Assembly: GCF_033153115.1 (NCBI RefSeq)
Contig: NW_026889758.1
Span: 11,160,001 to 11,224,000, forward strand
DNA from: Saccostrea echinata
Taxonomy: Eukaryota
Length of the DNA stretch: 64,000 nucleotides
Direction: 5' to 3'
Shown: in pieces, positions 7,840 through 41,854 of the stretch
Numbering within the stretch: position 1 is the first letter of the stretch
Layout: each line of letters starts with the position of its first letter
Program-made: the position numbers and the translations under genes
The notes under the pieces: model-generated
The model's input: the letters and a program-made list of their open reading frames with translations, nothing else
Database searches by the model: none
Told to the model about the DNA's origin: nothing

Positions 7840-7893
7840 GTGACGTTGATATTTGGAAAGTATATACGACGAGTTGATTATCAAAATCTGTAC
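7840..7893 (+). promoter_or_regulatory. Core promoter of shelk2-like locus A (CRE-like half site, TATA, putative initiator)
   Basis: gtgacgt 7840-7846, tatata 7861, ctgtac 7888; same spacing as the three paralogs; exon 1 donor cagg|gtaaga at 7930/7931. Confidence 0.7.
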
Positions 7894-8190
7894 TACACGG
7901 CAGTCAAGCAGTAAGTCCACACAAATCAGGGTAAGAGTCTTTAAATATTTTTAGAATAAGAAATGATTTAGATTTCTCAAACTAAGCTTTACAGGTTACT
8001 TTGAAAATGCTTTTAAAAGACTGAATTTAGTGTTTTCTTTCTTTTAATTGCTAAAATGTTAATTTTCTTTTAATTTTCATAAGATTTAATGTTTTAAAAC
8101 AATCACGTTTAACTGCCCAGCAAAAAATTAAAACAGTAAAGTACTAAATTATATTTTTTTTTCTTCCAAATTTTCATCTAACAACAGAAG

Positions 8191-9060
8191 ATGATGAAAA
8201 TAATCTCTCTCGCCTGCATCGTTGCCTGCGTTTGTGCGGATTATTACCCAAAAAGTGGGGATTACTATCCAAAGAGTTATGGATATGATTATGGATATGG
8301 GGACTACTATCCCAAGAGTTACGGATTTGGTCCATATGGTAGCTTTGGAGGTGTGAACGGTGGACTCGTTGGCTTTGGCGGTATAAACAGCGGCCTCAGT
8401 GGCCTGGGAGGATACTATCCCGGTTTGGTCGGTATTGGAGGCGGTTCTGCTGCTGCTGGTTCAGCTTCCGCCGGAGGTGCTGCTGCTGCCGCCACTGCTG
8501 CTGCCGCTGCCAGACAAAATGCTGCCGCCTCCTCTGCATGCTGCCGCAGGAAACGGTGCTGCTGCCACTGCTGCTGCTGCAAGTGGACTAAACGTTGCCC
8601 CATACTATACCTATCCTGGGTATTATTACCAGGGACAACAATACTACAACTTCCCCAGCTACTACTTTAATCAGTATTCCAGAAACTACTTCCAATACCC
8701 TTTTCATGGTGTTGGAGGTGGGTCTGCTGCTGCTGCTAGTGCTGCCGCCGCTGGTCAGGCTGCCGCTGCTTCTTCTGCCGCCGCCAGTCAAGGATTTAAT
8801 GGACTCAATAATGGCGTCATTCTTGGAAGACATGAAGGTTTTATCGGCAGAAGATCAAGAAAGGTAAATTGTATTAAAAAGAATGTTTTTGTTTCTTAAT
8901 TGATGATAATGACTTTTTATTAATTATAGATAATAAAAGATATTTGTTATTAATCTGAATTTTTATGCACGATCTTTATTCATTGAAAAACCAAACTTTT
9001 TAAAAACCTTTTGCTTTCTGAGGAATTTAATGATTCGTCTTTTACTTCCAGGTTTACTAA
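8191..9060 (+). pseudogene. shelk2: Shelk2-like silk/shell-matrix protein, divergent paralog A, with +1 frameshift
   Basis: Signal peptide MMKIISLACIVACVCA, DYYPK repeats, Gly-rich and poly-Ala blocks. One extra base at ~8538-8539 (gca-t-gct) shifts from ORF 8191 to ORF 8399. Intron 1 7931-8187, intron 2 8864-9051, last exon GTT TAC TAA 9052-9060, aataaa 9124. Repaired product 226 aa ending RRSRKVY. Family name from recall, not from a search. Confidence 0.8.
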
Positions 9061-9692
9061 CTGGACTCTACATTGAAATCCTTCCTGGGCTCTTTGGGAT
9101 CACATATTTATTTTTGTTTTCAAAATAAATATTCAGCAATGAATTTTGATGTGTTTTGTATAATTGATTTACACTGTTCTGGCTTAGCAAAATCAGGAAG
9201 AAAACATCATTTGATCAAAAGTAAGAAAACATTCTGTTTTCTCAAGCATGGCTTTCTCTCCACCCTTTTTCCATGCTCAGATTTTTTCGTTTAAGGCTTA
9301 GGGCTTTAGGGCTTGATTTTAAATTTAAGATAGCTGCTTGCTTAAAATTTTGTAAAACTGAAATATTTCTTTTTATTGGTTCGATACCTACAAGTTCTGA
9401 AGAAGGAGAGGTTCTGTCTCAAAGGGGGAAAAATCTGTAAAATATAAATTCTGCAATGATTCTGCAATGTTCTCTAAGCTAAATACGCAAAGGGAAACAC
9501 TTTCTAGGCATCAAAAGCTCATGGATTTTAAGATTTTTTAAAGGCCAGATAATTGTATCAAATATCATACAAGGTCAGCATTATTATATTCTTTGTTTTC
9601 TTGGGTTTATATTGAAAAAAATATGTTAACAATCTATAGCTCTCAATTTCATTTTTGTTTTGTTATTTAGCTATTCACTACAATTAAGAAAG

Positions 9693-9884
9693 GCCCATAC
9701 TATACATATCCTGGGTATTGTTACCAGGGACAATAATACTACAACTTCACCGGTTACTAGTTTAATCAATATCCCAGAAACTACTTCCAGTACCCAAAAC
9801 ATAACACTTACAGTCCTTTTGTTGGTGTTGGAGGTGGGTCTTCTGCTGCTGCTAGTGCTGCCTCCGCTGGTCAGGCTGCCGCTG
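9693..9884 (+). pseudogene. Shelk2-like gene fragment (type A), two in-frame stops
   Basis: Reads PYYTYPGYCYQGQ*YYNFTGY*FNQYPRNYFQYPKHNTYSPFVGVGGGSSAAASAASAGQAA; aligns to ~8600-8770. Confidence 0.85.
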
Positions 9885-10140
9885 GAAATAATTGATACTA
9901 TTTAGAGGACATATAATGAGTCGTAAAGAGTACAGATGGCTATTTTACACAATGTCATTTCGATAATTTTGATCTTCATAAAGATGATAGTCTTTATTTT
10001 AATGTTTGAATGGATCTGCATGATTTCTAAAACATCAATATTTTAGCATCAGCTTCATATTTTTAAAGAGATTACAAAATAACGGTGGGCTTGCTATATT
10101 CCTGATGGAGACCCAAAGGTAAATTTTTTTTTAAAAAAAG

Positions 10141-10560
10141 ATGACAGAGGACAGTTTTTTCTTTTGGTTTTTTTGTTGGGGTTTTATTTTATTTTATTTT
10201 TTTTTTGTTTTTTTTTTGTTTTTTGTTTTGTTTATTTTTTTGTTGTTGTTTTTGTATTGTTTTGTTTTGCAATCAAAACGTTTGGCTGTGGTATTTCTTA
10301 ATATGAACCTGCTAGTAAAATGTATAATGGAAATTGTTTTAAACTAGCTCTACATGTAACAATAATTTGTTCTTGTCTCTTGAGTAATTCGAACCTTCTA
10401 GGAAAAAAACATGTACATCTAACTTATTGATACCAAATTATGACACAGGGACGATCTTAAAAAATTAATGAAAATATAGCCTTTTTCGGTATTTCACCAG
10501 AAGGGGGGATGTAGGTTCTAACTACCAAATTTAATTAATACATTATCAAATAACCATATT
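10141..10560. mobile_element. Partial copy of the DNA element at 58314-58974 (opposite orientation)
   Basis: gacagaggacagtttttt...caatcaaaacgtttggctg...ctctacatgtaacaata is the reverse complement of ~58850-58967. Confidence 0.6.
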
Positions 10561-11078: not shown

Positions 11079-12430
11079 CTAGATGAAATCCCGCGCAAGC
11101 GCGGGTAATTGAATTTATACCACTACCGACAAAAAATATATTGTAGTTTCTACTGACAGCCTACAGGCTTATAGCAGGAAGAAATACTTTGTTCAAAATC
11201 CCGCATGTGCGTCTCCAACCCATCCCACCCCCTTTTGTAAAAACTTGAAAAAATAACAATTTCATTAATTGAAGTTTATTGTGAAACCTGTTATACTATG
11301 TTATGGATATTGTACTTCAGATGCTCCTATTTCATTTCCGTCAAGGATAACAGCAGCGAATATGCACATTTTACTGATAAATTGATTGTTTTGTTTTGTT
11401 TTTTTTTTTTTGAAGGGGGGGGGGGGTAAAATTCACAGGTACTTGGGTCTTGGTTTATGAATATGTATGTACCTTATTGATATGTAAAAAATGTACTTTA
11501 CCTTTTTTACATATCAATAAGTTACATACATATATATAAACCAAGACGCAAGTACCTGTGTAAAAATTAGCTTTAAACGGCTAAACGCCCTATGAATAGG
11601 CCGAGTATTTGATACAAAAGACTGTATTCAGGAAAAAAAAACTGAAATGTATTGATTAAAGCACAAAATTTTACAGCTTTAATTGTATTTGAGCAATATC
11701 TTATTCATTAATTTTCTCTTTTCATGTAAGCAATTTTATTACGAAGTAGAAATTGTACTTCGGGTTCGTTGCCACGATGCTCTCAGTGAGGAATATATAC
11801 ACATTTTTCCGATAAATTTATTAGGAAAACCTACTTCATATATGTAATAGTCTTTAGATATATAAATATATTCACAACTTACAGTGTTATCAATGATTTA
11901 CCATTATTTCAATGACTATTCACACATAAGCTTTTTTATGTCCCGGCAGCTATAATCGTCTCGTTTTTCTTTTTAATATCGGGCTCGATGCTATATGATG
12001 TTCTAGAAGCTTCCGTCAATATTAAGATCGGTGAATGACAAAAAATAATTTGCACATTTTCCTTTTTAATCGGTTATCACAACTTATTTCTTTTATGTCA
12101 TTTAAATCAAGTTAATCGAATAATTCAGTGATGACGTTTTATGAAATAAATAAACGATTGATTGTTGTCAGTTGCATTGAAAATTGCCAGAGACTTAGAT
12201 CCGCCAACCGGAAACGCCACCGTGCTCACGTTTTTGCTATTTCATGGCTGTTTATAGAAAATAAAAGTAGACTTTTAATTTAATGTACGATACTTACTAT
12301 GCGAGTTAAATCTAAATATAGTTTACGGACATCATATTGTATCTAGTGTATTCTTAGAGGAGTAAGTAAAAACTCTGGTGCATCCGTTTCGGAGTTTATT
12401 TGCAAAATTTATTAATTTATAAGTATAAGA
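11079..12430 (-). mobile_element. Non-autonomous Helitron
   Basis: On the minus strand: 5'-TC at 12430, 3'-CTAG at 11079, GC hairpin cccgcgcaagcgcggg (11090-11105) just inside the 3' end, inserted in an A^T site without TSD. Confidence 0.8.
11434..11560. repeat. ~127-bp palindrome inside the Helitron
   Basis: cacaggtacttgggtcttggtttat...ttattgatatgtaaaaaa mirrors ttttttacatatcaataa...ataaaccaagacgcaagtacctgtg. Confidence 0.8.
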
Positions 12431-14924
12431 TATGCTTTTATTTTTATTAATGCATGTCTACATTACTATATCGATATCTTAAAATGTCATGCTTAGATCA
12501 ATATTTTCAAATCAGTATTTTAATTCGATACAATTGATAGCAATTAAATCAATCAAATAAAAGTAGGTACTTTAAATCATGTAAAATAAAACACCTGAAT
12601 GCAATGCAAAATAAGCGTATATATTATAAAGCATAACACTTTGTATATCGAAAAGACACCTAAAAATGAGACAATTTACATGTAATAACACAAGTGTAGA
12701 GACCTATACGCTTCCATAATTAGGTGCATCGTTTCAATGTAATATCAGAATTTTTGAGTATGAGCATTATTTTCTCTGTATTAAATTGTCAACATATTTT
12801 TGGCGGTCAACCAGAAAAAATAATCATTTGTCACTGTAGTTATAAACTGACTTTACATAGACAGTAATTGGAAAGAAAACAGTTAATTAGTTCCTGGTGT
12901 TGTGTTATAACAACAAATTATTTGTTTTATGACACTTGCACCTATAATTGCGACAAAATTTTACTTTCTGAGAAAATGTCAGTTATGATCCTATACTCCC
13001 TTTACAGTTTTTTTTATTAGATGATCTGTAGATGGTTAAATGAAGGAAAAAAGTAAAGAATTCATCAACAAAGTATTGCAAGGAGAAAAAATAGCGAAAT
13101 GCATCTCTAAAAATGTGAATGTTTCAGTTGTGTTTCACCTTGAGTCTTAAAAATAAGATGAATTAGAGATATATGTAATAAACAAAAACGTAAGGTTACT
13201 GGTTTAAAGAGAGATGTAGAGATTTGTTTAGAATTTACAAAGAGAAACTGTTTTCATTCAATAGATGCAGAAGTCATTTTAATAGACAATTATTGATTGA
13301 ATGTAAAAACGATTATAAAAAATATATGTATAAGGCAAAATGTGAGTTTATGCGATGTCAAGGTAGCCAGTTAGAATATCTGAGGCGCACTTCGCCAAGA
13401 GAATTTTTAAATTTTTTTTAAGAATCGTAGGCCAGAAAACAAGTGTAATCGTAAGAATTTTATGAACATTTCAGAAACCTAGGAGTCTGTAAAGATGTTA
13501 CATATACTGATTTTTCGAATACAGTATATGATATGAGTGCTGTATTTGATGAACTAGATGTTAATATAACTGTTGAAGAGGTTGTAGATGTTATAAACTG
13601 TTTAAAAAGCAGAAAATCGCCAGGAAAAGATAATTTGATAAATGAGTATTTTAAATATATGTGTGAAGACCTAAGCCCACTTTTAACAAGAATATTTAAT
13701 GTTATTTTTGACACAGGAAACATTCTTCTTAGATGGTATGAAGGTGAAATAGTACCTATCCTTAAAAAGGCAGACCCAAATGTAACAGGTGACTATAGGG
13801 GGCATTACCCTCATGAGTTGTATGTTAAAAATATTTACTATACTTAATAATAGACTGATGAAATGGTCCGAGACTAATTCTGTTTTAACTGATGCACAGT
13901 TTGGATTTAGACCCTTTCGAATGGGAAAAAGCTCTACTGTTGTTTTGTGGACTACTGTAAGGCATTCGACAGTATTAATAGAAATTATCTTTTCAAAAAG
14001 CTCATAACATTAGGGATCAAGGGGAAAATCAAAAGCTCATAACATTAGGAATCAAGGGGGAAACGTTTAAAAGTATATGGTCTCTGTATAAGAATGTTAG
14101 GAGTTGTGTGGAATACAAAAACAATTATAGTGACTTTTTTAGAGTAGAACAAGGAGTCCTTCAGGGAGAAGCACTGTCTCATTAACTTTTTTTCTTTATA
14201 TTTAAATGATTTTGAAAATGCTTTTATCAAATCTAATTGTCAAGATATAAATCTCCAAAAAGTATCATTGTTTTTCATGTTATATGCAGATGACATGGTA
14301 TTATTTTCCGATTCTCATGAGGGATTACAAAAAATGCTTGATGTGCTTTACTCATATTGTAATGATTGGAAAATATCTGTAAATGTAAGTAAAACTAAAA
14401 TAGTAGTATTTAGGAAATCTAGTCGATTGAATCAAAATTTTAATTGGTATTATAATGATGAAGAAGTTGAAGCTGTCAATCAGTTTACTTATCTTGGTCT
14501 CACTCTGACATACAAAATCTCAGGTAAAATTGGCTACTCAAGGGAGGAAATGTATGTTTAAACTTTTGAAGTCAATGAAGAATGTGCATTTTAATTATGT
14601 TGCTCATTTATCTTTGTTTGATACTTATGTAAGTAGTATATTGAATTACGCAAGTGAAATATGGCAATTCCACAAAGGTTATGCTATAGAGAAAATACTT
14701 TTAGAATATCTCAAAATTATGGTGAAAGATAGAAAAAATAACTCATCGTTGATTATCTATAATGAACTTGGTCGCTTACCTCTTTTTATTCAAAGGAAAA
14801 TTCGCATTCTAAAATTTTGGTTAAAATTATTGGAGTCAGAAAATTGTATATTGAAAAGTATTTACCAAGATATGCTTGAAAGACTTGAGACAAGTCCTTG
14901 TACAAAACATAACTGGTTACTTAA

Positions 14925-15592
14925 GGATATCCGATCCTCAGCCAGGAAGGATAACTCTTAAATTTATTATTTTATTTAAAAAGTCTCAAAATGAAGCTTG
15001 AAAATGAGATCTTTTCGTGCAACAATTTTCATTTTATGCATCTAAATGTGATTCAAGGTTCTTTGAAGCCTTAGAAACGGTCTTGTTAAAAGTTGACATT
15101 TGTACCCCATAAAAGAAAAAAATGAATTCATTTTTAGAGAAATTTAATTTCCTTTAGTCTAGCATTAGATACGACTGCTTATTAGCATGATATGAAATTA
15201 GAAGTGATATGTGATGTCTAGCAATGATAGCACAAGCTTTTTATACTATGTATTATATGAAAATTGAGGTAAAAAGAGGAAATAAAATACTGTATAAGCA
15301 TAAAAAAGATATAATTTTCTCTAAATGCCTGGATACCTATATTTATCTATCCTAAATTATATTTGTTGATCAATTTTCAAGTAGAAAATGCATAGCTGGT
15401 GTTTTTATTCGCATTTCTTGAAAATATATTTGAGATTTGATAATTTTCCCTATATAATATGATTAACTATAATGATGAACATTGAAGAAATTCCATGGGT
15501 AAATTCACGTTACTATGTGAAATCAGAGACATTTTTGTGAGCATTTTCAATTACTTAAAAGCTGATTTTCAGAACCTGAGGATCGGACTACC
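14925..15592. mobile_element. TTAA-targeting MITE (Kolobok-like) nested in the LINE
   Basis: TTAA TSD at 14921-14924 and 15593-15596; TIRs ggatatccgatcctcag / ctgaggatcggactacc (GG..CC termini); empty site preserved in the inverted LINE copy at ~16505-16512. Confidence 0.85.
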
Positions 15593-15668
15593 TTAATGTA
15601 ATATTTTTACTATTTTCCTTACGGTTTGGAGAAGCTTGGAATTGTCAAAATATTACAAACAAAGTTTT

Positions 15669-16184
15669 AAGGTTTTTAAAAAGTTTGGTTTTTCAATGAA
15701 TAAAGATCGTGCATAAAAATTCAGATTAATAACAAATATCTTTTATTATCTATAATTAATAAAAAGTCATTATCATCAATTAAGAAACAAAAACATTCTT
15801 TTTAATACAATTTACCTTTCTTGATCTTCTGCCGATAAAACCTTCATGTCTTCCAAGAATGACGCCATTATTGAGTCCATTAAATCCTTGACTGGCGGCG
15901 GCAGAAGAAGCAGCGGCAGCCTGACCAGCGGCGGCAGCACTAGCAGCAGCAGCAGACCCACCTCCAACACCATGAAAAGGGTATTGGAAGTAGTTTCTGG
16001 AATACTGATTAAAGTAGTAGCCGGGGAAGTTGTAGTATTGTTGTCCCTGGTAATAATACCCAGGATAGGTATAGTATGTTGCAACGTTTAGTCCACTTGC
16101 AGCAGCAGCAGTGGCAGCAGCACCGTTTCCTGCGGCAGCATGCAGAGGAGGCGGCAGCATTTTGTCTGGCAGCGGCAGCAGCAG
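15669..16184 (-). pseudogene. Inverted 516-bp duplicate of shelk2-like locus A (8495-9010)
   Basis: Reverse complement matches 8495-9010 with about 3 mismatches; includes the frameshift and part of intron 2; lacks promoter, start and last exon. Confidence 0.95.
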
Positions 16185-16561
16185 ACTAAGTGCACATTTA
16201 TTAATGATTGAGAAGGGAAGATTTACTAGATCTTCCCTTCTCAATCATTGATAAATGTGCACTTAGTCTATATTTTGAATATACTTGGTTGGAATTTGTT
16301 TCATTAAGTAGGATTGCATGCACAGCTTATTTGTTAGATATCTATACACAGAACACTTTGGTGACAAGAAAAAAAGCCTCGCATTCTTGTTGAAAACAGT
16401 CAGTTAATCTTTGTTAATTTTTTTTTAAAAAACATATTTTTGTTTGTAATATTTTGATAATTCCAAGCTTCCCCAAACCGTAAGGAAAATAGTAAAAAAA
16501 ATTACAATAAGTAACCAGTTATGTCTTATACAAGGACTTGTCTCAAGTCTTTCAAGCATAT
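16183..16561. repeat. Fold-back inverted duplication of LINE sequence with 87-bp hairpin at 16183-16269
   Basis: agactaagtgcacatttattaatgattgagaagggaagat mirrors atcttcccttctcaatcattgataaatgtgcacttagtct; ~16437-16561 is the reverse complement of 14870-14924 joined to 15597-15663. Confidence 0.9.
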
Positions 16562-17757
16562 TCAGGTATTCCTAGAGAGAATAGATCTTGTTTTTTCAGT
16601 CAATTAGAGGTTGAAGATGAGTACCATTTTATTTTGAAATGTTCACTTTATCATGAGTACAGGAAATTGTATATTAAAAAGTATTACTGGTATAGACTTG
16701 TATGCATAAACTTTTACAATTATTATCAACTGAAAATGTGAGTGAACTAAGTAATATAGGAAAATTCCTACAGAAAGCAGAAGCACTTAGAGATTCACAT
16801 CTGTAAACTAAGGATTTTTTTCTTTAATATTTGGTTAGAAATACCGGGTATTGTACACAAATAATATTATGTTAAAACAAGTGTATGTAAATATTTTATG
16901 TATATACATTTTGTATTTTGTAATTGTCTAATGAGTATGTAATCTGATAAGCCATATGGCTTAAGGAATAAATAAATAAACAAACAAGAGAGAGAGAAAA
17001 AACTGCCATAAGATTGAAAGAAAAAGCACAAAACTCAGAACAAAACGAAGGATAATAAAACATCCACATACATCATTGTTTTTTTTTAATATTGTTCTAC
17101 GAATGATATATTTTTAGCATTATGGTAGACCTGCGCAAAGTGAAAATAAAATATAAATGCATGGAATTAACCATTTGAAAAACATTTCAATAAAAGTTGA
17201 AAACGTGCAGGTGCAAGTGTTCGCTAATTATTAATAATATTTTATTGTACTGGCAATGATTCGATCGTTAAAAGTTTTTTCTTTAACTACTGCATATGAT
17301 TAACTTTTTCCTTAGAAGATAATAAAATGACAATTTTATTAGTTTTAAAATACTGACTTCTTTTTATTTCTGTTATGACATTCATTTATAGTTAAATTAT
17401 TAATTTGAACGTCAGGTAAATTTTAATTACTAACCTTCTATTATTTTAATTATGATTAAAAACTGATGAGTTGACAATTCATATTTATAGAACAATTAAA
17501 TTTAAGATACTTGGCATGGCAAATGAATAATAACATCACTATAGTGTATAAATTGGGGGGGGGGGGGGGGGAGGGGACAATAAAAACTATGAACAACTTA
17601 CATTTAACTCTTTATTCTCATAAGTGAATATGTACATGTACATGTTATTATGACACCAACATTTTTCTTGCAGATATTTCACAAGATATGTGTATTTTAT
17701 GTTCATGGAAATTAAATAACAATCCCCAAGTTTTCACAATTACTTCATATGCATCAA

Positions 17758-18099
17758 GACCGTCACGGTAGCTTAGTCGATAGAGCTCTCGCTTCGTGAT
17801 AGGAAGATCGTGTGGTCGAATCAATGTCGCGACTGACCTAAGTCGATAAAAATTAGGTAGCAACTGTTCCTTCGCCAAGCGCTCGGCACTTTGAAGAGAA
17901 AGTTGCTGGTCTTTCTGATGAGACCTTAAAAACCGAGGCCCCGTGTCACGGTAGGCGTTGGCACGATAAAGAACCCTCACTGCTCAATGGCAATGAGTGC
18001 GGAGTAAAGGTCCAAATTTGCAGTCCTTTTCCGGTATATGGTGATGTCTCTAGATGAGTAAAAAATTCTCGAACGGGACGTAAATCAACACACAATCAA
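17758..18099 (+). mobile_element. tRNA-derived Meta-core SINE, full length
   Basis: Head gtagcttagtcgatagagc, core gatgagaccttaaaaaccgaggccccgtgtc...gcacgataaagaaccc; 13-bp TSD tcatatgcrtcaa at 17745 and 18100. Confidence 0.9.
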
Positions 18100-18284
18100 T
18101 CATATGCGTCAATTTATGAATGTTTTGAAGGGAGTGGGTTTCTTTCATTATGTAGTCAATCATAAATATTTTTCCTCGACAATTCATTCTGGAAGTATTG
18201 TTAAACAATCTTCCTTTTAACTTCGGTACTACTCTCACATTAAACGTATGAATGAATTTTCTTCCACAAAATTACTTTGATTAA

Positions 18285-18710: not shown

Positions 18711-18711
18711 A

Positions 18712-18823
18712 CTCTTCAAGTGGAGGACTAAACACCGGATTCTTCAACACTGGAGGTCTCAACACAGGAATGTTCGGTCTTGGAGGTGGGTCTGCTGCCT
18801 CTGCTGCTACACAAAGTGCTGCT
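18712..18823 (+). pseudogene. Orphan shelk2-like fragment (type B)
   Basis: SSSGGLNTGFFNTGGLNTGMFGLGGGSAASAA; about 90% identical to 23217-23303. Confidence 0.85.
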
Positions 18824-19641: not shown

Positions 19642-19688
19642 CACACACACACACACACACACACCCTCACAGACACACACACACACAG
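19642..19688. repeat. (CA)n microsatellite, interrupted
   Basis: Direct reading. Confidence 0.9.
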
Positions 19689-21240: not shown

Positions 21241-21269
21241 GTTTGCCCTGAGCAGTGGCTCACTTATGA

Positions 21270-22792: not shown

Positions 22793-22846
22793 GTGACGTA
22801 ACCATTTGGAAACTATATAAACATCGATAATTCGAAAATTCTGTAC
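22793..22846 (+). promoter_or_regulatory. Core promoter of gene B1
   Basis: tgacgtaa 22794, tatataaa 22814, ctgtac 22841; exon 1 donor aag|gtaaga at 22882/22883. Confidence 0.8.
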
Positions 22847-23045
22847 AAACAGTGGTTGCCTTCAGAAGACCGTTCAAGCAAGGTAAGATTACAGCTATAA
22901 GATATTAGTAACACTACAGTTATTCTAGATACTGTTAATAAAATTCCTATAAATGAATCAATTCCTACCAAAAAAGATCATAACACTCTACATGGTAATA
23001 TTATTTTTCTCATAAATAAATAATTGAACTTTTTTTCAACAGAAA

Positions 23046-23947
23046 ATGTTGAGACTCATCTCCATTGCCTGTATCGTTGCCTGCGTCTTCGCAGACTCTT
23101 ACCCAAAGGGTGACTATTACCCTAAGAATGACTACTATGGTGGATGTGGAAAATATGGATGCACATACGGTATCCACTCTCAAGGTCCCTATGGTAACTT
23201 TGGAGGAATAGTCAGCTCTACAAGTGGAGGACTTAACACCGGATTCTTCGGCACTGGAGGTCTCAACACAGGATTGATCGGTCTTGGAGGTGGATCTGCT
23301 GCCGCAAGCGCTGCCGCCGCCGGAGATGCTGCCGCTGCTGCTAGCGCAGCCGCTGCAGGACAAAATGCTGCCGCTGTTGCCGCTGCCGCCGCTGCCAATG
23401 GAGCAGCTGCTTCATCTGCTGCTGCCACCGGAGGTTTTGGATTGAACATTGCTCCATACTACTTCAATCAACCAGGATATTTCTATAATTTCCCAGGACA
23501 GTATGGAAACTTTGGTCAATACTACACCTATCCCAGACATTACTACAACAGTTTCCCCATCTTCAATAACTACGTCCCATATTTTGGTCTCGGAAGTGGA
23601 TCCTCCGCTGCTGCTAGTGCTTCTGCTGTTGGTGGAAGTTCTGCTGCTTCTGCTGGTGCTTCTGCAGGTGGATTTGGTGGATTCAACGGAATTTATGACG
23701 GAATCTTCCTCGGAGGATCAAGACGTAATTTCAGAAGAAGACACAGCAAGGTATGATTTAAACATCATTTGTAAGTCTTAACTTAGCGTCTCTCGAACGT
23801 CTTTATTTCGTTTTCTATCGAACAAGTTGAACCCTAGTTTAATTAACATAGTATATTAATATAATTTCCATATATATATTATCTATATTTTAATTTTACA
23901 AATAATTATGTGCTTATTGTTCTCTGCATATATTTCAGGTGTACTAA
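23046..23947 (+). CDS. shelk2: Shelk2-like secreted silk-like shell-matrix protein B1 (237 aa; coding 23046-23750 + 23939-23947)
   Basis: Signal peptide MLRLISIACIVACVFA, YPK/DYY N-terminus, GGLNTG repeats, poly-Ala blocks, Tyr/Phe/Asn-rich domain, basic tail RRRHSKVY. Intron 1 22883-23042, intron 2 23751-23938 (GT-AG), aataaa 23999. Family assignment from recall. Confidence 0.92.
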
Positions 23948-26900
23948 TGGATCCGGCCAATATAAACTGTTTCTGGTGATGTTTTGTTAATTTGTGATAA
24001 TAAATGTTTTATACTCAACATAGCTTTTTTATTTTCTAAATTCAATGCTGCAGAAGAAAAAAAAATTATTGGTATCCAATGAAAGGATTTTTTTAAAGCT
24101 CTTTAAAGTGATTATAAGAAGTATAGTGTTGAAATTTTGTAAAGCTACGTGTATAAGAATCTTTATACTTTTTTAATACAAAGATTGCAAAATTAAGAAA
24201 TACTTTCCAAGGAATAATAGAAAAATAAATATATATATTTTAAAGCAAGTTCGTATAATAAAAAAGTATACTGATATTGAGTCAATAGTGTAAGAAATAA
24301 TGACCGAATACCTCACCTCTACTGAGAGGAATTGAAACTCAGACCCATAAATTAAAGGGCTTAGTGTTTTAGTATTGAGGTTAGGAGATGCACAAAGATA
24401 TTATTTCCACTAAAATTCATCTACTTTGAGCATTTTCCTTTGTTTATTGAGATTTTTTTCCAATTGTAAAGTAATAGGAAGAGAAACTCGGCTGTATAGA
24501 TAAAGAGCACAATTATACAGAACTGACAAACTTCCTCAAGCATAGAGAGAGTGGAGGTGAAGAAATTTTGTTGAGCAATCGCTTTTGCTTGGATTACGAT
24601 ATTGTTGATATTGAATGCGATAATAAGAGCATGTTTTTGCGTGAAAACCAGACAAGGTATGCACCAGAGTTTACTGTTAGTAACCAGGCATATATTTAGA
24701 ATAAACACATTGTCCATTCAATCTGTCAATTAGAATATGCTAAGTCAGTGACATAAGTTTCATGTGTTGATATTGTTACAGTGAATAAAAGGTTTAAGAG
24801 AAAATGGGAAGACAATTAATTATTTGTTAAAATCAAACCATTTTGATTTTGAAGATGTACATTCTGGACTCAATAATAATAAAGAACCATATTCATATAT
24901 ACTAGGATATTATAATGTAAACGATTCTCGATTCTTCATTTCTGATCAGTATAAGGTCAGGGTTATTCTCAAACTATATATAGGGATATTTTATCTCTAT
25001 CGAGATATTTGTCAAACTCAAATCGAGGTACCATCAAATCACTAATTTTTGAGGGGGGGGGGGTAATTTTTGTTGTTTTTGAGGTATGAAGAGACCCACG
25101 ATTTATGCTCACCACAAAATGAAAAAGTGTCAAATACAAAACTACTCAATCATCCTTCAATCATAAAATCAAATCCCCACGAACCCATTGTTTTTCATCA
25201 AACAAGAAAAATTTGAACCCACGAGCATATGTGACTATACAGTATTTTACGCAGGTGTATATAATTTCGATTCCTTTGAAATTGTTGTACGTGATTTTTT
25301 TTTTCAATTGTAATATCCAGAAGTATTTTACTTTAAGCAAAATACTTAAAGTATAAAGTAGCTTATTGATTAAATCATTTTGTGTTACATTTTCCCTTTT
25401 AGAGAAGGGAAGTAAATGGTTATTGATTTTTGGTGTTTAAGATTTTGTTTTCATCTATTATTATTATAAACAAATGTACCTGAAACCATTTCAAACTTTC
25501 AGAATTCCAAGAAATGCAAATTTATACAAATACAAATTTAGCGATCTCAGCTGGATTTCTACTGGATTTCTGGAAATACGTCAATATATCGAAAATGATC
25601 AAACTCATAAATCTAGCAAACATGGCAAAAACACAGACCCCTTAATTACAAGAAGTTGGAGCAGGTGCTTAGAAGGGGTGAGCATCTCCTGTCGACTTGT
25701 CACACCCGCCATGAACCCTCTGCATCTATCATTCAAACGGAGCAATCCGTAAGATGCATAACAACATTGCCTTGAATGTCGGTCAAAATACGAACCGAAT
25801 CAATTTAGAAAGAGGTATATTGAAAGCCATTATAGATAATGGGAAAACTTCATAAATGATTTTTTCTGTTTGCATGTCTAATGATCTATTAGATATATAT
25901 TTTTATTGAAGATATATATATTTATAATAATCCTTGGACGATATAGTAGCAATGTAATTGATCAATGACATTACTGAATATTCTACACTTTACAATGCTC
26001 TTAATCGTATTTAATTATTGTTTTATTTACTACAAATATTATGCATGAAATATATTTCAAAGGCTGTATACTGTATTAATATTGATTACAATTTTTATTT
26101 CTGTCTTTTGATTTCAATCGGTGTATAATTTGTATACATGTATTTGGGTAAGGTTTTTTTTGTAATTTATTTATTCATTTTTGTGTACGTGTGTTTTGAA
26201 AATCCTACTTTGCAATAAACAAAATTGTTTTTCTATTTTTCGGACTTTGTACTTTTCAAAAAAAAATATTCATTAACCCATTCTTTTTTTTAATAAGTTC
26301 TATATAAAAAAACAGGGCACTTAAGCAATAGCAAATGGGTCCTTTTTAGTTCCATTTAAAAAATATCTTGTTTTGTAATAATTTAACATTGGTGGATATA
26401 CTTCTGATTAAAAATCACGTGCAACATCACCAAGACTGGCATGGATAGCAAACTACTAGGGCTTTTTTAATTGCTATAGATAATCCAGAAAAATAATATC
26501 GAAGCTACTAACATCAAGGGAAGGACTCGACTGTTGAACAAGCTGATGGTGGATCGATGTGCACTTTTGTCGAATGATAAATTCGAATAGAGCTATGTAA
26601 GTTGTCTGTAGTCATAGTGATAAAACTAAGAGTTTTGCACGCTAGCATTTGATATAATAGAATAAAGAAAGTATAAGTTTCTCTATCCATTCGAGGCAAG
26701 GATTTTAAATTACAAAAAAGTATTTAGGTGCAAAAGGCCGAACTGTTTTATTGTACATTTGTACTTGCATTTAAGTAGACAGTTGATCTATTTTGTTATC
26801 AAAGTTATTTGAAGCCAGAAGAACTTCACAAGAAAGTATCATAAAATAGAATATTGAAATAAAATTTTGAAATAAAAAAAATCGTACAGATAGTTTTCGC

Positions 26901-27820: not shown

Positions 27821-27897
27821 TCTAATACATAGGGCGTCCCTTATCTTTTGCGCAACGTTAGGCTAGCTGACAGTTAACAAAGGCTTTGAAATGAATA

Positions 27898-31608: not shown

Positions 31609-34311
31609 TAGCAAGTATAGTAAACAGAAGATGCATTTGTCATTTAGCGCTAGTAGTACCTGGCCATAAGTACCTGTATACGTAACATGAAAATTAGATA
31701 TGAAAATAATTTTTCATATTAGCAACACGAACACCAGTACATTTTTTCATTAAAACTCAACACCTTTCAAAATCGCTTTGAGGTTGATTTTAAATTTTCA
31801 AGTTCAGGGGCTAAAGAAAAAAAGGAAAATAATAAACATAAACCTATCATGAAATTCAAAGACACAACTAAAGCGACAGAAGAAAATCTAAAGCTGTTCT
31901 AACTCTGTATATGTCAATGGATTGTTGTATGTTATTCAATAGTTCAACGTCCCATTCTCATTTATATAGATACGTCGATATTAGCAGATCAATAGACAAA
32001 AAACTTAATGATTAAGAAAACACATAAGTATAACAAGTTATAAAGAATAGAAAAATAAGAGATAATCAAAATTTAAAAAAAAAATAAATAAAAATAAGTA
32101 TATTTTTTTAAAAATAATACTAATTAATAAATAAAAAGACCAATTTATTAATTAATCAATTAATTTTAAAATACATAATGGCAGATAACATTAACAAACA
32201 CGTGTTGTTTGTCAAATTTAGGTCTACATTCTTGAATGTTTTAAATCATTAGAAATTATTCAAATTATTAGATATGCCTTTTGTTTATTCTAAAATTAAT
32301 TTTAAAGTAAAGTAAAAGGTTCACGGTGTATCTAACTAGAACATTTTGATATCATATAAATAAAGCATCCTCAGATTCAATATATATTAAAGTGAATTAC
32401 CGAAAACACAATGTTTCATGTAATAAAAAATAATTTGTACATGTCAATACAAATTTCAATAGTGCAATATCCCCATGCATTTTACCTAAGAAAAAAATGC
32501 ATACTACATGGAATAATACATTTCATTTGTTTGTTTCAAAGAAATTAAACAATCTTTAAAATATTAGGAAAAAAACCTATCCACTTGCAAAAAAAAAAAC
32601 CCTGACAGTCTATCATACTTAGATAAGTCTTACACTTTAATTTTACTCAAGTCATATGTTTCATAATTATGATTCAAAAATTGTTTTGTGGTTGAAATTT
32701 TACATCAAATTTTTGTTTATTGTCAAAATAACATTTTCTTATTAAATGTTTATATATATCATTGGATTGAGGTAATGAACAATGTCAATCTACTATTTTT
32801 AGGACGTATCATTTCCATCAATTCGATAAAAAAGTTCTAAATTATAAATTCATAACATACATAAATTAACTTATAATGATGATTCAAAGTAGACACTTGA
32901 ATATGTAGAATTAATTGGATTTTTTTCCCTTCCATTCTTAAGGATACATATCACAAACAATTTGATGCATGGATTGTTATATATCTTAACTGATTATGAA
33001 TGGAAATGACATAAATAATAAATCCTTAAAATATACAAAGAAATTGTAAGTTCTCATTGGTATTTAGGTATGCGACTTTGAGTAGTTTTCTATACAATTC
33101 TATATAAAATATTGCACACATTTTTATCATTGTGACAAAATATTGCAAATTTTCCCACTTTACCTGGCAAACATTATTCAGGTTACCTATTTGAATATAA
33201 ATCTATGAGAAATATTGCTGATATCTAAAAAACGTTTCTGTTATTTAACCTTAATATTATAGCATTTTGAAAATTAAAACAAATCATTAATGTTTTTTTT
33301 AATAGAAAATATTGACAAGATCAATCTATTTTCTGATTTATCTTTTTCATGTTATACATTATTTATGAAGATTTCCTATTTCACAAATAGCTTAAAATAA
33401 TAATAATAATAATAATAATACAAATATTGACTGGGGATGATGAGAACAAGAATGATTATTTTAGCCTCCAATTGATAAGATATTGCCAGACGAAGAGTGG
33501 AAGGTAATATTTTCATCCCGAGGAGGCTAATATATTCAATGCAAAACACATGTGTTTTGTTATAGGAATACCATTTTTTTTTATCCAAAACAAATCAGTA
33601 ATATAACATTGGAAACAAATTCATTTAAATAAATAATTTAAATTTTGTATCCCTTTATTTATTGTGATGCCATGTTTTTGAAAGTCCCGACGTTATCATT
33701 ACGTCACAATATATTAGTATACTGATCAGAATCAAGATCAATAAAAATGTGGGAATACTCTCCTTTCCGGTCAATAGGGAAAAAAATAAATGACTGTCAA
33801 TATTTCTCGGAGGATCTAATATCAATTATATTGACTGCTTTTATGCATAGAGAATAAAGAGATATTCTTTACTGAATTATCATTCCGTAAATCAGAACAA
33901 ATAATATTCCTGTAAATCTATACAGAAGAAGAGTATTTAAATATGATATACGAAAAAATTCTTTTGTATTAATAATAATTTCTTTAAAGCACAAATTTTA
34001 GAATTCCAAACAGTGTTTTTCTAAAGTTATGTTCTTAAGATAATATTGAAAAGGAAGGAAAATGTTCTTTTGAAAAGAAGATCAATTGAATTTTCAGAAA
34101 ATACAAAAAATAGTTATCTTTTTATATTTTTATCTTTTTATGGTTTACGCATAATTTATAATTTGGCATTTCACAACAAACAATTTTTAAATTATCAAAT
34201 TTTAGAATAATTAATGTCATTCTGTCGATCACAGAAAAGCTTCCTTTTAACATCAATTTGGTTATTATTAAGACAACTTTAAGAAATGAATCACACTAAC
34301 CACTCTTCCTT

Positions 34312-34365
34312 GTGACGTAAGCTTTTGATAAGTATATAAACACTGTTGCTTTGAAAACTCTGTAC
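34312..34365 (+). promoter_or_regulatory. Core promoter of gene B2
   Basis: tgacgtaa 34313, tatataaa 34333, ctgtac 34360; exon 1 donor aaa|gtaaga at 34404/34405. Confidence 0.8.
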
Positions 34366-34580
34366 AAGAAGCAGTGTTAGCCTTGTGAAGAGCAGCAAAG
34401 CAAAGTAAGAGTACAAATATTAGACGTATTATTAAAAACGCTACAGTTCTACGAGGCACTCTTCATAAAAGTTGTTTCATTGAATAAATTTTAAGAGTTG
34501 AAAGAAGATCATATCGCTTCACATAAAATTATGTTTTTATATCTTTTAAATAAATAATTGAACTTTTTTTTCAACAGAAA

Positions 34581-35448
34581 ATGTTGAGACTCACCTCCCT
34601 TGTCTGTATTGTTGCCTGCGTTTTCGCAGACTCTTACCCAAAGGGTGACTATTACCCTAAAAATGACTACTATGGTGGATGTGGAAAATATGGATGCACA
34701 TACGGTATCCACTCTCAAGGTCCCTATGGTAACTTTGGAGGAATAGTCAGCTCTACAAGTGGAGGACTTAACACCGGATTCGTCAGCACTGGAGGTCTCA
34801 ACACAGGATTGATCGGTCTTGGAGGTGGATCTGCTGCCGCAAGCGCTGCCGCCGCCGGAGATGCTGCCGCTGCTGCTAGCGCAGCCGCTGCAGGACAAAA
34901 TGCTGCTGCTGTTGCCGCTGCCGCCGCTGCCAATGGAGCAGCTGCTTCATCTGCTGCTGCCACCGGAGGTTTTGGATTGAACATTGCCCCATACTACTTC
35001 AATCAACCAGGATATTTCTATAATTTCCCAGGACAATATGGAAACTTTGGTCAATACTACACCTATCCCAGACATTACTACAACAGTTTCCCCATTTTCA
35101 ATAACTACGCCCCATATTATGGTCTCGGAAGTGGATCCTCCGCTGCTGCTAGTGCTTCTGCTGTTGGTGGAAGTTCTGCTGCTTCCGCCGGTGCTTCTGC
35201 AGGTGGATTTGGTGGATTCAACGGAATTTATGACGGAATCTTCCTTGGGGGATCAAGACGTAATTTCAGAAGAAGACACAGCAAGGTATTATCTAATTTT
35301 CATTTGAAACTCTTTCTTTCATTTTATGTTAGACAGTTTAAGCTTTTTATTAACAAGCTATATCAAAATCGTCTTTTGCGTTCATTATCATTCAAATTTA
35401 CAGATAATTTGTGTTCATTTCTCTCTGCATATTTTTCAGGTGTACTAA
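34581..35448 (+). CDS. shelk2: Shelk2-like secreted silk-like shell-matrix protein B2 (237 aa; coding 34581-35285 + 35440-35448)
   Basis: About 97% identical to the B1 coding exon; intron 1 34405-34577, intron 2 35286-35439; last exon GTG TAC TAA; aataaa at 35461 and 35503. Confidence 0.92.
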
Positions 35449-35685
35449 TGGATCGGTCCAAATAAAAATGTTTCTGGTGACGTATTGTTAATTTGTTATT
35501 ATAATAAAGTTATATACTCAAAGCAGTTTGTTGTGATTTAAATTTTATGCTGGAAAATAAAAAAATATTTTCAAAAAAGGTATTGTTGATAAATACGGTG
35601 TGAAAAATTTGTGAATTACTAGGCATTTTGTTTTGTTATACTACCTGCTTCAGTTTTACGATTCAACTTCAAGAATACAAGATTG

Positions 35686-35723
<38 letters not shown>

Positions 35724-37254: not shown

Positions 37255-37497
37255 ATTAATTGTTTGTTTATTAATTTGTTTGTTTAACGTCTCTTCGAGA
37301 ATTTTTCACTCATATTCAGACGCCACCACTTGCCGGTGGAGGGCTGCAAATTTATTCCTGTACTCGGCACTTAGGCCTTTGAGCAGTGAGGGATCTTTTT
37401 CGTGCCAGCACCTACTGCAACACGGAACCTCTTTTTTACGGTCTCATCCGAAATTCTCGAACGGGGCGTAAAACAACATACAATCAATTAATCAATC
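37255..37497. mobile_element. Chimeric SINE remnant: minus-strand core and tail fused to a plus-strand tail
   Basis: 37255-37452 is the reverse complement of SINE core and tail; 37451-37497 aaattctcgaacggggcgtaaaacaacatacaatcaat is a forward tail. Confidence 0.8.
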
Positions 37498-37679: not shown

Positions 37680-38751
37680 AAAATCAATAACATCAAAACG
37701 TACGACTTTTGAACACTTTATACAACAATTCACCATGATAAATTAAAGTCGAGGCTTTTTGACATCATAGACGACTGCTTTTTCAATAAAAATGGAACTA
37801 GTAAATTTTCTTACCTTGTCATTAGTCATTTGCAAAATGATTTTGATAAAAACATTCTGAATGTACACTAAGTACTCCGAAACAGATATCAAAAAGATGC
37901 TTGAGTTTCTGATTTACAATATCTGTGTAGTTTTTGGAGATCAGGTCTTCCAACAATTTGTCGGAATTTCCATGGGTATCAATTGTGCCCCTTTTTTATA
38001 TTTTCGTAGCAGAATTCATTCAAAAACTTATACTTGAGTAGAAGAAAACATTTGCTGTGCCATTCAACTCGACATTTAAATATATCGACGACGTATAATC
38101 AATTAACAATAGTTACTTGCCAGTGAACTTGAAATAAAATATACCAAAGGGTTCGATAAATCTGTTTCATATTTGGATATTTTACTAGAAAAAATAAAGT
38201 TAATGGTTACCTAACAAAACTTTATGATAAATGTAATGACTTCAACTTTTCTATCGTCAACTTCCCTTACTTATGTACATGTAGCAATATACCCTTATTA
38301 CCTGCAGATGGGATCTTCCAGTTGATTCGATACGCAAGAGCATGTTCCACGTACAAACCATTTCTAAAACGAGGCAAACTATTGACAAACAAGATGATGA
38401 ATCAAGGATATCAACAGTCTCGTTTAAAGTCAACATTTTGCAAATTCTTTGGTCGATTCAACGACCTTGTCAGTGAATAAAATCTATCATTGAGTCGAAT
38501 GCTTACTGACGGTTTTCACACTAATTGTTAAGTCATTATTTAAACACTGAATTGCCTATGGATTCTTCGTTTGCCCGATCATGATAATTAGCACACAAGG
38601 GGTGTGACTGGTCGACAGGGGAAGCTTACTCCTCCATGGCACATGATCCCATTCTGATGGTTTTTAGAGTTCCGTCTTTGCTCAGCTCCCAATTTGTATC
38701 ATTTTAATGGATTTTTGAGCTTGATTACCGTTCGTTATCTCCATATTTCAT
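37680..38751 (+). mobile_element. Penelope-like retroelement, decayed RT and 3' end (possibly Naiad-type)
   Basis: KTYDF*TLYTTI, MLEFLI, QQFVGISMG.NCAP, FKYIDD, SIVNFPYLC, QLIRYARAC; RT runs to the element end with no C-terminal GIY-YIG visible. Confidence 0.85.
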
Positions 38752-39736
38752 TGCAAGATTATTTCACTCATATGATTGTAGTGAAATGTCCCGTTTAAAA
38801 TCATACATCCCTGAGCCGATAAAGAAGCATTTAGACAAAAGAGTGATATCAAAAGCAAAATCTTATTAATTGAATTTCAGCATTATCAGTATGGCATGTA
38901 TTAATGTTGTAAAAGTATAGTGGCATTCATCAATTTTGTCGGAGGTATTTTTTTTAAATGAATGAACAAATAAATAAAAAATATAAAGTAAATTAAAAAA
39001 TTGGAATATTAAGAAACATTTTTTCACAAATATAAATCTTCAATCTAGAATGTGCCCCTTAGTTAGGAATGTAGTTTTAAGTTATCAGACATCAGTGCCT
39101 TCTACTTATTTCTAAGAATTAGCATAAGCGAAAGCTTTCCCGATCAATCTCAAAAACAATTTTGATGTTTAGATTCACCAAAGGCATTTTTTTTTACGTT
39201 GTCCATTTATTATGTCATATAATAAATAGTTTTCAAGCTTTTATGTCAATGTTATACTGATACGCTGTTTCATGTTTTTATTTCTTTCAATGATCAACCA
39301 ATTGTTTAAATTTCACAATAATTTTGTTTCAAAAATACATGTATTGAAAATTCTGAAAAACAAATAAGAGAGAAACATACCTCCTAGCAAGAATCAAACA
39401 TGTGTTACAAACCTTAACGGCAATTTCCATATATAATACTGGACAAATGCAAGTATTTGTATATAGGTTACACTTACATTTTTCTCAATTCATATGTTAC
39501 CCGTGATCTATGAATATGATTTGATTTGAATTTAAATTTGATATTAGAATGATATTTATTTCCAATATTGATAACTGCTTTAAATAACAACAGTTGATGC
39601 ACTGAGCAATTTACACATCTACGATTCTTAGAGCGTAAATTTCCAATGAAAAAAGTAAAACGTTAGGACATTTATTTTACACTGCTGTCATTTGAATACA
39701 TAGGTAATAGTTTATCTGTTTTGCACTAAAACAACC

Positions 39737-39859
39737 CTCCTGAAACTTAAAATAATCCAGGAAATAACGTTACGTGTAGAGGTATCAATGGATTTTAAAA
39801 ACGTGCATGTGGTTGGAAATTAATAGCTTTATTGTGCAATGACAAGGAATAACACATTT
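39737..39859 (+). promoter_or_regulatory. Conserved distal upstream block of gene B3
   Basis: Homologous to 22131-22254. Confidence 0.45.
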
Positions 39860-40480
39860 CATTTATTTCGATTCAGTGTGAGACAAAGGCATTATTTCGC
39901 CCACCTTTTAACCAAAGAATACTTCTTTGATTATGAATAAAATTTGCATATCTGACGTGTCGTTCAACGCCACAGAGAACACGAGATGATACTACACTTA
40001 ATGTTACAGCAATTCTTTTACAACCATTAATGTACAGATATTGACTAGTAATTATGATCCAAAGAATATACCTGTAAATGTATACAGAAATAAAGAATTA
40101 AGATATATTATAAGGGAATTTCTTTTGTATAAATAAGAATTATTTTAAAGCCAAATTTCAGAAGTCCCAAACAGTGTATTATTCAAGTTATTTTTTAATG
40201 ATTATATTGAAAAAAAAAGAGCAAATATTCTTTTAAAAAGAGATTAATTTGAATTTTCAGAAAATTCTAATAAAATAACTATTTTTAATCCTTCTATCTT
40301 TCTATGAATTAAGCATAATTTATGAAGATTCAGCATTTCACATTGAACTTTTGTTTTAAATTATCAAATTTTAGAATAATTAATGTCATTCTGTCGATCA
40401 CAGAAAAGCTTCCTTTTAACTTCACTTTAGTTATTATTAAGACAACTCAAAGAAATTAATCACATTCAACACCCTTCCTT

Positions 40481-40534
40481 GTGACGTAAGTGTTTAATTA
40501 CTATATAAATACCGTTACTTTGAAAGTTCTGTAC
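40481..40534 (+). promoter_or_regulatory. Core promoter of gene B3
   Basis: tgacgtaa 40482, tatataaa 40502, ctgtac 40529; exon 1 donor acg|gtaagg at 40570/40571. Confidence 0.8.
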
Positions 40535-40735
40535 AAGCAGTAGTTGCCTTGTGAAGATCAGTAAAGCACGGTAAGGCTGTAAGACACCACTGTGATACAA
40601 AATACAGCTAAAATAATGATTGTAGTTAGAGCCGAAAAAATCGTCACACCATTCATTAAGTTATTGTCTTTGCTTTTGTGTGTATGTTTCTTTTTTCATT
40701 TTGAATAATTCATTTAACATCTTTTTCAACAGAAA

Positions 40736-41607
40736 ATGTTGAGACTCACCTCCCTTGTCTGTATTGTTGCCTGCGTCTTCGCAGACTCTTATCCAAAGGG
40801 TGACTATTACCCTAAAAATGACTACTATGGTGGATGTGGAAAATATGGATGCACATACGGTATCCACTCTCAAGGTCCCTATGGTAACTTTGGAGGATTA
40901 GTCAGCTCTACAAGTGGAGGACTTAACACCGGATTCGTCAGCACTGGAGGTCTCAACACAGGATTGATCGGTCTTGGAGGTGGATCTGCTGCCGCAAGCG
41001 CTGCCGCCGCCGGAGATGCTGCCGCTGCTGCTAGCGCAGCCGCTGCAGGACAAAATGCTGCTGCTGTTGCCGCTGCCGCCGCTGCCAATGGAGCAGCTGC
41101 TTCATCTGCTGCTGCCACCGGAGGTTTTGGATTGAACATTGCCCCTTACTACTTCAATCAACCAGGATATTTCTATAACTTCCCAGGACAATATAGAAAC
41201 TTTGGTCAATACTACACCTATCCCAGTCATTACTACAACAGTTTCCCCATTTTCAATAACTACGTCCCATATTTTGGTTTTGGAAGTGGATCCTCTGCTG
41301 CTGCTAGTGCTTCTGCTGTTGGTGGAAGTTCTGCTGCTTCTGCTGGTGCTTCTGCAGGTGGATTTGGTGGATTCAACGGAATTTATGACGGAATCTTCCT
41401 CGGAGGATCAAGACGTAATTTCAGAAGAAGACACAGCAAGGTATGATTTAAATATTATTTGCAAGTTTTTCTTTCATTTTTTATTGAACATATATGTTCA
41501 ACGAATTATATTTATTTTATTCCCGTTCGTGTCTACGATAATTAAATTAAAAAAAAAATGAAAACACATTTGTAAATTGTTTTCTCCATCTTTTTCAGGT
41601 CTACTAA
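40736..41607 (+). CDS. shelk2: Shelk2-like secreted silk-like shell-matrix protein B3 (237 aa; coding 40736-41440 + 41599-41607)
   Basis: Near-identical to B1/B2; intron 1 40571-40732, intron 2 41441-41598; last exon GTC TAC TAA; aataaa 41663. Confidence 0.92.
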
Positions 41608-41854
41608 GGGATCGAACTCATTTAATACTCTTTGTGGTGATGATTTGGTGTTCATTTGTGATAATAAATAATCTGTACTCAAAATATATATATTGATGTT
41701 TTCAATAAAATGCTGAAAAAGACCATAAATTTCCGAATAAAGAACAACAAAAAAATTATTGTTCTTTATAATCATTTGAGATAGAATTGTAAAGGATTTT
41801 GAATCCATGGACGTCTGTTTCAGAGTTATATATTTAGGAAATGATGGTATATCT

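Follow-up and report, generated by a model that had tools for sequence, protein, structure and literature searches.

Why should three neighboring genes agree almost letter for letter in their coding exons while their introns are about as alike as shuffled sequence? The question is raised by a cluster of silk-like genes in the oyster Saccostrea echinata (NCBI RefSeq assembly GCF_033153115.1, contig NW_026889758.1, positions 11,160,001 to 11,224,000), a stretch of 64,000 nucleotides (nt) called the window here. Taken jointly, the findings are probably best explained as a tandem stretch of the Tyr-rich branch of the oyster Shelk2/"spidroin-like" family, encoding secreted matrix of the shell edge, with gene conversion restricted to the coding exon. 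The cluster is genuine, and its genes are of a kind already known in oysters; it is a clean and testable example, to which the present analysis adds the sharpness of the exon-only homogenization and a predicted blind spot of trypsin for the products.

Seven family sequences lie between 8.2 and 41.5 kb and none elsewhere in the window, as judged by six-frame translation, self-BLAST, and tblastn searches of the entire window with 56 fetched proteins, whose matches form seven clusters (Table 1). A preliminary description of this DNA had counted seven related sequences, namely three intact genes, one frameshifted gene and three fragments, and that count stands: B1, B2 and B3 are intact, gene A carries an extra base, and F1, F2 and F3 are fragments. 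Four of the seven loci (A, B1, B2 and B3) have the full shape of a gene, with what we take to be a TGACGT box about 20 nt upstream of a TATA-like box, then a short non-coding exon 1, a single long coding exon 2, and a last exon contributing Val-Tyr-stop. The B1, B2 and B3 products have 237 amino acids (aa) each, from the long exon 2 plus a two-codon exon 3.

Coding exons, introns and flanks of the B genes

Pairs of B coding exons differ at 16 to 20 of 705 nt (97-98% identical), with a synonymous divergence (dS) of 0.060-0.067 and a nonsynonymous divergence (dN) of 0.011-0.017. Their intron cores, in contrast, are 59-71% identical, as against 62-66% for shuffled controls, while promoters reach 75-88%, exon 1 74-84% and the 3' untranslated region (UTR) 70-79%. 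Mismatches number 78 of 263, 82 of 245 and 97 of 256 aligned sites in the intron cores versus 10 to 11 of 173 synonymous sites (Fisher p from 5e-10 to 1e-15). The boundary is abrupt: identity among the B genes climbs from about 0.4-0.7 to 0.93-1.0 at the splice acceptor and drops again at the donor. Because intron identity is at the shuffled level, the three genes are not haplotype duplicates, which bears out, as to haplotypes, the earlier view that haplotype or assembly duplicates are unlikely.

Codon bias could make unrelated silent sites look alike, and it can be ruled out as the cause here. Fourfold-degenerate sites are identical among the B genes at 123-125 of 129-132 positions, as against the roughly 62 predicted at saturation from the genes' own codon usage, whereas gene A and B1 agree at 40 of 83 such sites, which is the saturated value. 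Relationships among the copies also change along their length. Sites at which one copy is the odd one out fall to B1 84 times and to B3 28 times upstream, versus 11 and 48 times in intron 1 (p 1.5e-12), and the flanks of B2 are a mosaic, with a B3-like promoter and a B1-like intron 1 and 3' UTR. The 27 coding differences among the B copies are patchy (13 runs, p 0.016), each copy having private runs. Compared with B1, B-type contigs from X10, a more distant source, show differences at 11 of 158 and at 15-18 of about 158 letters (7-11%), where B2 and B3 show 2-4 (1-3%). The contigs agree with a quick protein tree in which copies group by species or genus, an agreement that covers coding and protein sequence.

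Silent coding divergence far below that of neighboring neutral sequence, together with mosaic relationships, is the pattern of concerted evolution, and it is likely, going by the DNA, that the B1-B3 coding exons have been kept alike by exon-limited gene conversion at the DNA level. The preliminary description had called the cluster a case of birth-and-death evolution, a label that is half right: birth-and-death acts between the subtypes and on copies that are dropping out, and it fits gene A and the fragments, whereas the coding exon of B1-B3 gives the opposite signal, that of concerted evolution. On the scheme proposed here, the B copies would have duplicated long ago, their introns now being near saturation; selection on the protein would have held exon 2 similar enough for recombination to continue, while introns and flanks drifted beyond its reach. 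The A subtype would have escaped conversion and duplicated, the copy in the window now decaying beside an intact copy elsewhere.

Two other accounts of the B genes have to be weighed. Pure birth-and-death, in which B1-B3 are independent duplicates held alike by purifying selection with no exchange between them, can point to a dN/dS of about 0.2 among the B copies, to the turnover visible in a pseudogene and three fragments, and to additional paralogs among the RNA contigs. It is nonetheless unlikely: divergence at silent sites is 6-9 times lower than in the introns next to them, saturated sites should by codon usage be about half identical (exactly what A versus B shows), and the flanks are mosaic. 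That the B2 and B3 coding exons were homogenized by a collapsed or gap-filled repeat in the assembly is very improbable, despite three N gaps in the window and transcripts of B1 type only among the matches listed: the private runs among the 27 differing sites argue against such an artifact, collapse presupposes near-identity to begin with, and near-identical sister copies occur also in chromosome-level assemblies of other oysters. Conversion through a cDNA was considered as well and is ruled out by the unhomogenized exon 1 and 3' UTR and by the retained introns.

We found no report of concerted evolution in an oyster silk-like cluster among titles and the starts of abstracts, although papers on Shelk2, shematrin evolution and chorion genes may treat copy number or conversion. 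Tandem copies of the early chorion genes of Bombyx are said to undergo gene conversion. A close parallel is HMA4 of Arabidopsis halleri, where coding sequences of tandem dosage copies stand in a balance of conversion and mutation while introns diverge (bioRxiv 10.1101/2025.10.29.685298). The two cases would share a regime, modeled for HMA4, in which conversion between dosage-type tandem copies works only on stretches that selection keeps similar; they differ in that short HMA4 introns are homogenized (1.2-1.6%), whereas the 150-190-nt introns of the window are near saturation, which implies short conversion tracts or a much older duplication. For a biomineralization locus the restriction to the coding exon is unusually sharp. 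It means that copy ages and orthology within the family are unreadable from coding sequence, and that short-read expression counts separate the copies by their UTRs alone.

Gene A and the transcripts

Gene A has a single extra base near position 8538, which shifts the poly-Ala frame into a Cys-rich tail that stops at 8668, 193 nt upstream of the last exon junction. The shifted frame (8539-8670) reads the poly-Ala codons as a poly-Cys basic tail (CCRRKRCCCHCCCCKW) after an intact putative signal peptide. Such a +1 frame is a ready path by which a secreted Ala-rich protein could turn Cys-rich, although in gene A the early stop probably silences it. A functional Cys-rich product of A was judged unlikely, given the stop so far before the last junction and the lack of any contig for it among the matches listed. 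On the two sides of the break, gene A shares 87 of 96 and 95 of 108 aligned residues with the S. echinata protein XP_061173261 (P0005; about 89% overall), the nearest named homolog. From the B genes, by comparison, the A subtype is removed to 58% aa identity, with silent sites saturated. F2 carries the same frameshift as A, ends at an 87-bp hairpin (16183-16269), and is lodged within a broken long interspersed nuclear element (LINE).

Contigs of four public runs were aligned to positions 15690-24300, an interval covering F2, F3 and B1. Those spanning B1 are 1-2 letters off the gene, and they skip its intron 1 (160 nt; run X2) and intron 2 (188 nt; runs X1 and X2) at GT..AG borders. None of the runs listed is recorded as RNA, and it is by these skipped introns that X1 and X2 are taken to derive from RNA. 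Contigs of A type come from three of the four runs (X1, X2 and X9), lack the extra base and have one codon more. Over 371 letters, those of X1 and X2 show 28-29 differences from F2, three of which are private to F2, since the contigs match gene A there. Among the matches listed, at least 20 differences fall in 19 codons. Of these codons, 3 differ through changes found in F2 alone, 7 hold silent changes, and 9 encode another residue; within this last group the transcript has the residue of the S. echinata protein in 6 cases and the window gene has it in 3. Because these contigs lack the extra base and have diverged to this extent, the window copy of A, judged by its sequence, is likely a decaying one, and an intact A-type copy outside the window (or a very divergent allele) is likely the one expressed. 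Further paralogs show in the RNA contigs as loose ends at 23138 and 23393 and as a joint at 23207-23327. Depths of A-type and B1 contigs co-vary over the four runs (about 5; 1100-1800; 1300-1900 per contig; 14-48), a poor measure that is not counted as evidence here. In run X2, the contigs of B1 depart from the window over 30 letters at both ends (22860 and 23996), possibly as library chimeras.

Family membership and putative role at the shell edge

Homologs of B1 number 6 among 8000 candidate proteins, 7 among 1.84 billion representatives and 42 by profile search; every named match among the 42 belongs to the true oysters (Ostreidae), with no unrelated family among them as best match. Their automatic names include spidroin-like, antifreeze protein Maxi-like, circumsporozoite-like, shematrin-like and uncharacterized. 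They sit on one chromosome per species, and restriction to Ostreidae together with a tandem arrangement on one chromosome is what characterizes the family. Its other traits are a predicted signal peptide, the motif DYYP(K), GQN- or GRN-Ala blocks and a basic tail ending K-x-Y. The last two codons lie on a separate exon, so spliced models end KVY and read-through models (e.g. P0023) end KVSFS, at the same junction as in the window. The window genes share the motifs, the tail and the split last exon of this oyster poly-Ala "spidroin-like"/Shelk2 cluster family. Direct homologs named "spidroin-1/2-like," "antifreeze protein Maxi-like" or uncharacterized (XP_061173261, A0A8W8HMZ2, A0A8W8HMH4, XP_052696721), all automatic names, share with them the signal peptide, DYYPK, GCGxYGC, GQNAAA and the basic tail ending K-x-Y. 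The suspicion that such genes are mis-annotated is justified in other oysters: several models are extended before the signal peptide, and P0022, a Saccostrea cucullata model of 497 aa, fuses two family genes, with a second signal peptide near residue 280, which shows both that family members are tandem neighbors and that they are mis-annotated.

The features attributed to the proteins hold with some adjustment. Both the Tyr/Phe/Asn/Gln-rich domain and the basic tail are present in the B1-B3 products. The subtype motifs (DYYPK with YGY-rich sequence for A; GCGKYGC plus GGLNTG repeats for B) are as described, except that DYYPK occurs in both subtypes; Ala-rich blocks exist, with short runs of at most 6 Ala in B1 and 4-5 in A; and the N-termini of B1-B3 are hydrophobic, the signal peptide itself being putative. 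Calling the genes Shelk2-type was right in a loose sense only: this is an oyster silk-like family, and A and B1-B3 lack the Shelk2 peptide block. Shelk2 is reportedly multicopy in Crassostrea gigas, C. nippona and C. virginica, with GQN-Ala and GS-Ala motifs (Takahashi et al. 2012). Of the motif types G(Q/R)N-Ala(n) and GS-Ala(n), B1 contains a single GQNAAA and three blocks of GS-Ala, each of them short. Peptide tables of PMC6542584 list Shelk2 peptides of a 29.7-kDa protein with YYGLNLGGGS-Ala8 blocks. YYG(L/F)NLGGGS followed by long poly-Ala is found in none of five window sequences (B1-B3 and the two parts of A) and in 2 of the 56 fetched proteins: P0001, the best match of B1, and P0050, whose N-terminal part matches the A ortholog at 5.7e-6. 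No protein named Shelk2 was returned by the homolog searches, including one from P0050 residues 1-125 that found 3 proteins. Like Shelk2, the window genes are oyster-specific, of secreted type, Ala-rich and multicopy, and a "spidroin-like" block in C. nippona encloses three Shelk2 genes; unlike Shelk2, the window proteins are of about 22 kDa, have neither a YG.NLG.GSA block nor a Ser followed by at least 7 Ala, and possess a Tyr-rich middle and the GCGKYGC motif. A quick protein tree sets a long-poly-Ala branch (16 rows, support 100) apart from Tyr-rich proteins that include the window genes, clusters copies by species or genus, and joins XP_061173261 to gene A at ortholog level (support 99). 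It has 29 rows, drawn from the named proteins plus P0001 (31 of the 56 fetched proteins were left out); of its 26 inner branches 9 are open, and it comes with long-branch warnings. The window genes are thus likely a Tyr-rich sister subfamily in the Shelk2/"spidroin-like" cluster and not Shelk2 proper.

For the B genes, the homolog searches returned no Saccostrea protein at ortholog level. Pfam gave no family for B1 or for either part of A, Rfam gave 0 matches, and the protein atlas gave a best score of 0.78, to arthropod low-complexity proteins and nothing specific. Kinship with spider spidroins is not indicated, as the products have no N- or C-terminal spidroin domains (no Pfam match) and are only 237 aa long. 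Pinctada shematrins are Gly/Tyr-rich secreted proteins of the prismatic layer with basic tails such as RKKKY, RRKKY, RRRKY and PRKKY (PMC3896809). The likeness to them consists of a basic stretch and a final Tyr only; the window tails are HSKVY or SRKVY, Ala blocks dominate over GnY repeats, the GnY/RKKKY pattern is absent from the window genes, and among the homologs "shematrin" is a single automatic name on a fused model.

The mature B proteins (22 kDa, isoelectric point 9.1) contain 38-39% Ala plus Gly, 10% Tyr and 2% acidic residues (Asp plus Glu), a composition suggestive of a framework protein and not of an acidic, mineral-binding one. Going by silk-like proteins of shell and byssus (PMC4944945), the Ala blocks would confer stiffness through beta-sheet packing, and the Gly-rich parts would remain amorphous. 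The B proteins would be secreted by mantle-edge epithelium, where their Ala/Gly blocks would pack into silk-like sheets and Tyr, along with the Cys pair of CGKYGC, would cross-link (by tanning or disulfides) to form the insoluble envelope around the prismatic layer or in the periostracum. Dosage would be raised by having identical copies.

Trypsin is predicted to cut mature B1 into pieces of 5, 6, 9, 128, 62 and 1-3 residues. One usable peptide (7-35 aa) is predicted for B1-B3, covering 4%, versus 30-32% with chymotrypsin; twelve relatives have 1-6 usable tryptic peptides and 7-32% cover. A comparison is offered by the C. nippona block CNI_010547-010570; its names recur among the homologs found here, which in each species are all on a single chromosome. 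In C. nippona, 19 of the 24 consecutive genes (12 spidroin-like, 3 Shelk2, 4 with other low-complexity names) are expressed more at the mantle edge than at the center, with log fold changes of 7.0-15.5 (PMC10543319 Table S11). The proteomes of that study used trypsin and detected 1 of these 19 genes, in the prismatic layer; none of the 19 is in the edge-versus-center table during shell repair (PMC10543319 Table S12), which fits induction in the center or shutdown at the edge. A C. gigas proteome has been read as being without silk-like proteins (PMC5379566).

Low tryptic yield may explain both the block genes missed in C. nippona and that C. gigas reading. We regard it as a tentative possibility, somewhat short of even, that a cluster of about 20 genes, ranking with the most mantle-edge-specific ones of oysters, is the missing silk-like framework of the shell edge, kept uniform by conversion for dosage and overlooked through trypsin and mis-annotation. 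If true, this would contradict the published view that silk-like proteins are missing from oyster shell proteomes. The cluster, predicted to be nearly blind to trypsin and less so to chymotrypsin, offers a cheap and concrete test.

Several points weigh against reading the cluster as shell-edge matrix genes under exon-confined conversion. There are only three B copies, in one assembly with gaps; the shift in the odd-one-out copy could stem from replacement of B3 intron 1 alone; the divergence of the X10 contigs cannot be dated relative to the B duplication; and no B2- or B3-specific contigs occur among the matches listed. Alignment of low-complexity sequence inflates E-values and weakens the tree, and the tie to the C. 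nippona genes and to Shelk2 runs through names, motifs and intermediates, without direct alignment. Moreover, 18 of the 19 C. nippona block genes are undetected in three shell-layer proteomes (PMC10543319), and they may equally well be absent from mineralized shell. This last point lends itself to the alternative that evolution was as described and the proteins belong to some other mantle or larval secretion (periostracal groove mucus, cement, ligament) or to defense, as does the report that C. virginica "spidroin-1-like" genes change in gill and gonad samples (PMC12040131). We hold that alternative to be improbable: the C. nippona proteomes relied on trypsin, which leaves so few usable peptides of B1-B3 and their relatives, the block is among the most edge-specific of C. 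nippona genes, and one of its members was recovered from the prismatic layer (PMC10543319).

Features and repeats of the window

Table 1. Family sequences and the broken LINE in the window, with the clusters of tblastn matches
Feature	Position	Strand	Details	tblastn cluster
Gene A, frameshifted	7840..9129	+	TGACGT 7840, TATA-like 7861, non-coding exon 1 to 7930, exon 2 8188-8863 (ATG 8191/8194), exon 3 from 9052 (Val-Tyr-stop), AATAAA 9124	8185-8893 (+)
F1, decayed A-type 3' part	9694..9884	+	82% identical, 21-nt insertion	9695-9892 (+)
Broken LINE (reverse transcriptase)	13194..15668	+	Pfam RVT_1, E 3.5e-13	
F2, inverted copy of A 8495-9010 (part of exon 2 and intron 2)	15669..16184	-	513/516 identical	15786-16185 (-)
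F3, B-type GGLNTG region	18712..18799	+	88 bp, 92% identical, directly behind a dispersed repeat	18704-18823 (+)
Gene B1, intact, spliced	22793..24004	+	TGACGT 22793, TATA 22814, exon 1 to 22882, exon 2 23043-23750 (ATG 23046), exon 3 from 23939, AATAAA 23999; 237 aa	23040-23744
Gene B2, intact	34312..35508	+	TATA 34333, exon 1 to 34404, ATG 34581, exon 2 to 35285, exon 3 from 35440; 237 aa	34560-35348
Gene B3, intact	40481..41668	+	TATA 40502, exon 1 to 40570, ATG 40736, exon 2 to 41440, exon 3 from 41599, AATAAA 41663; 237 aa	40730-41434

An eighth remnant was considered at 33250-33400, where AT-rich sequence weakly resembles the acceptor/start region and the promoter of the B genes; it was rejected, the acceptor-like and promoter-like matches being no better than AT-rich DNA could give. 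The LINE is interrupted at about 14923-15594 by a TTAA-flanked non-autonomous DNA element with terminal inverted repeats (GG...CC), presumably Kolobok-like by its ends, and LINE pieces beside this insert recur inverted and insert-free at 16422-16561. Seven long hairpins (87-316 bp) resembling miniature inverted-repeat transposable elements lie at 2481-2629, 11434-11560, 16183-16269, 28790-28931, 43371-43686, 43702-43821 and 46553-46687; 6-bp direct repeats stand at the ends of two of them (ATCATG at 43371-43686, which contains a 22-bp tandem array, and CCCTTT at 43702-43821). A 16-bp minisatellite (31025-31488; 28 copies, 89% matches) lies between B1 and B2. A repeat resembling a short interspersed nuclear element is present in six copies, 74-87% alike (4936-5265, 5603-5790, 17762-18102, 27475-27830, 37259-37453 and 59822-60135), and very numerous RNA contigs match the copy at 17762-18102. 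A dispersed repeat with reverse-transcriptase-like remnants occurs at 38122-38774, 47444-47665, 49624-49756, 57046-57187 and 63068-63697, and a further member, at 18599-18712, stops exactly at the start of F3.

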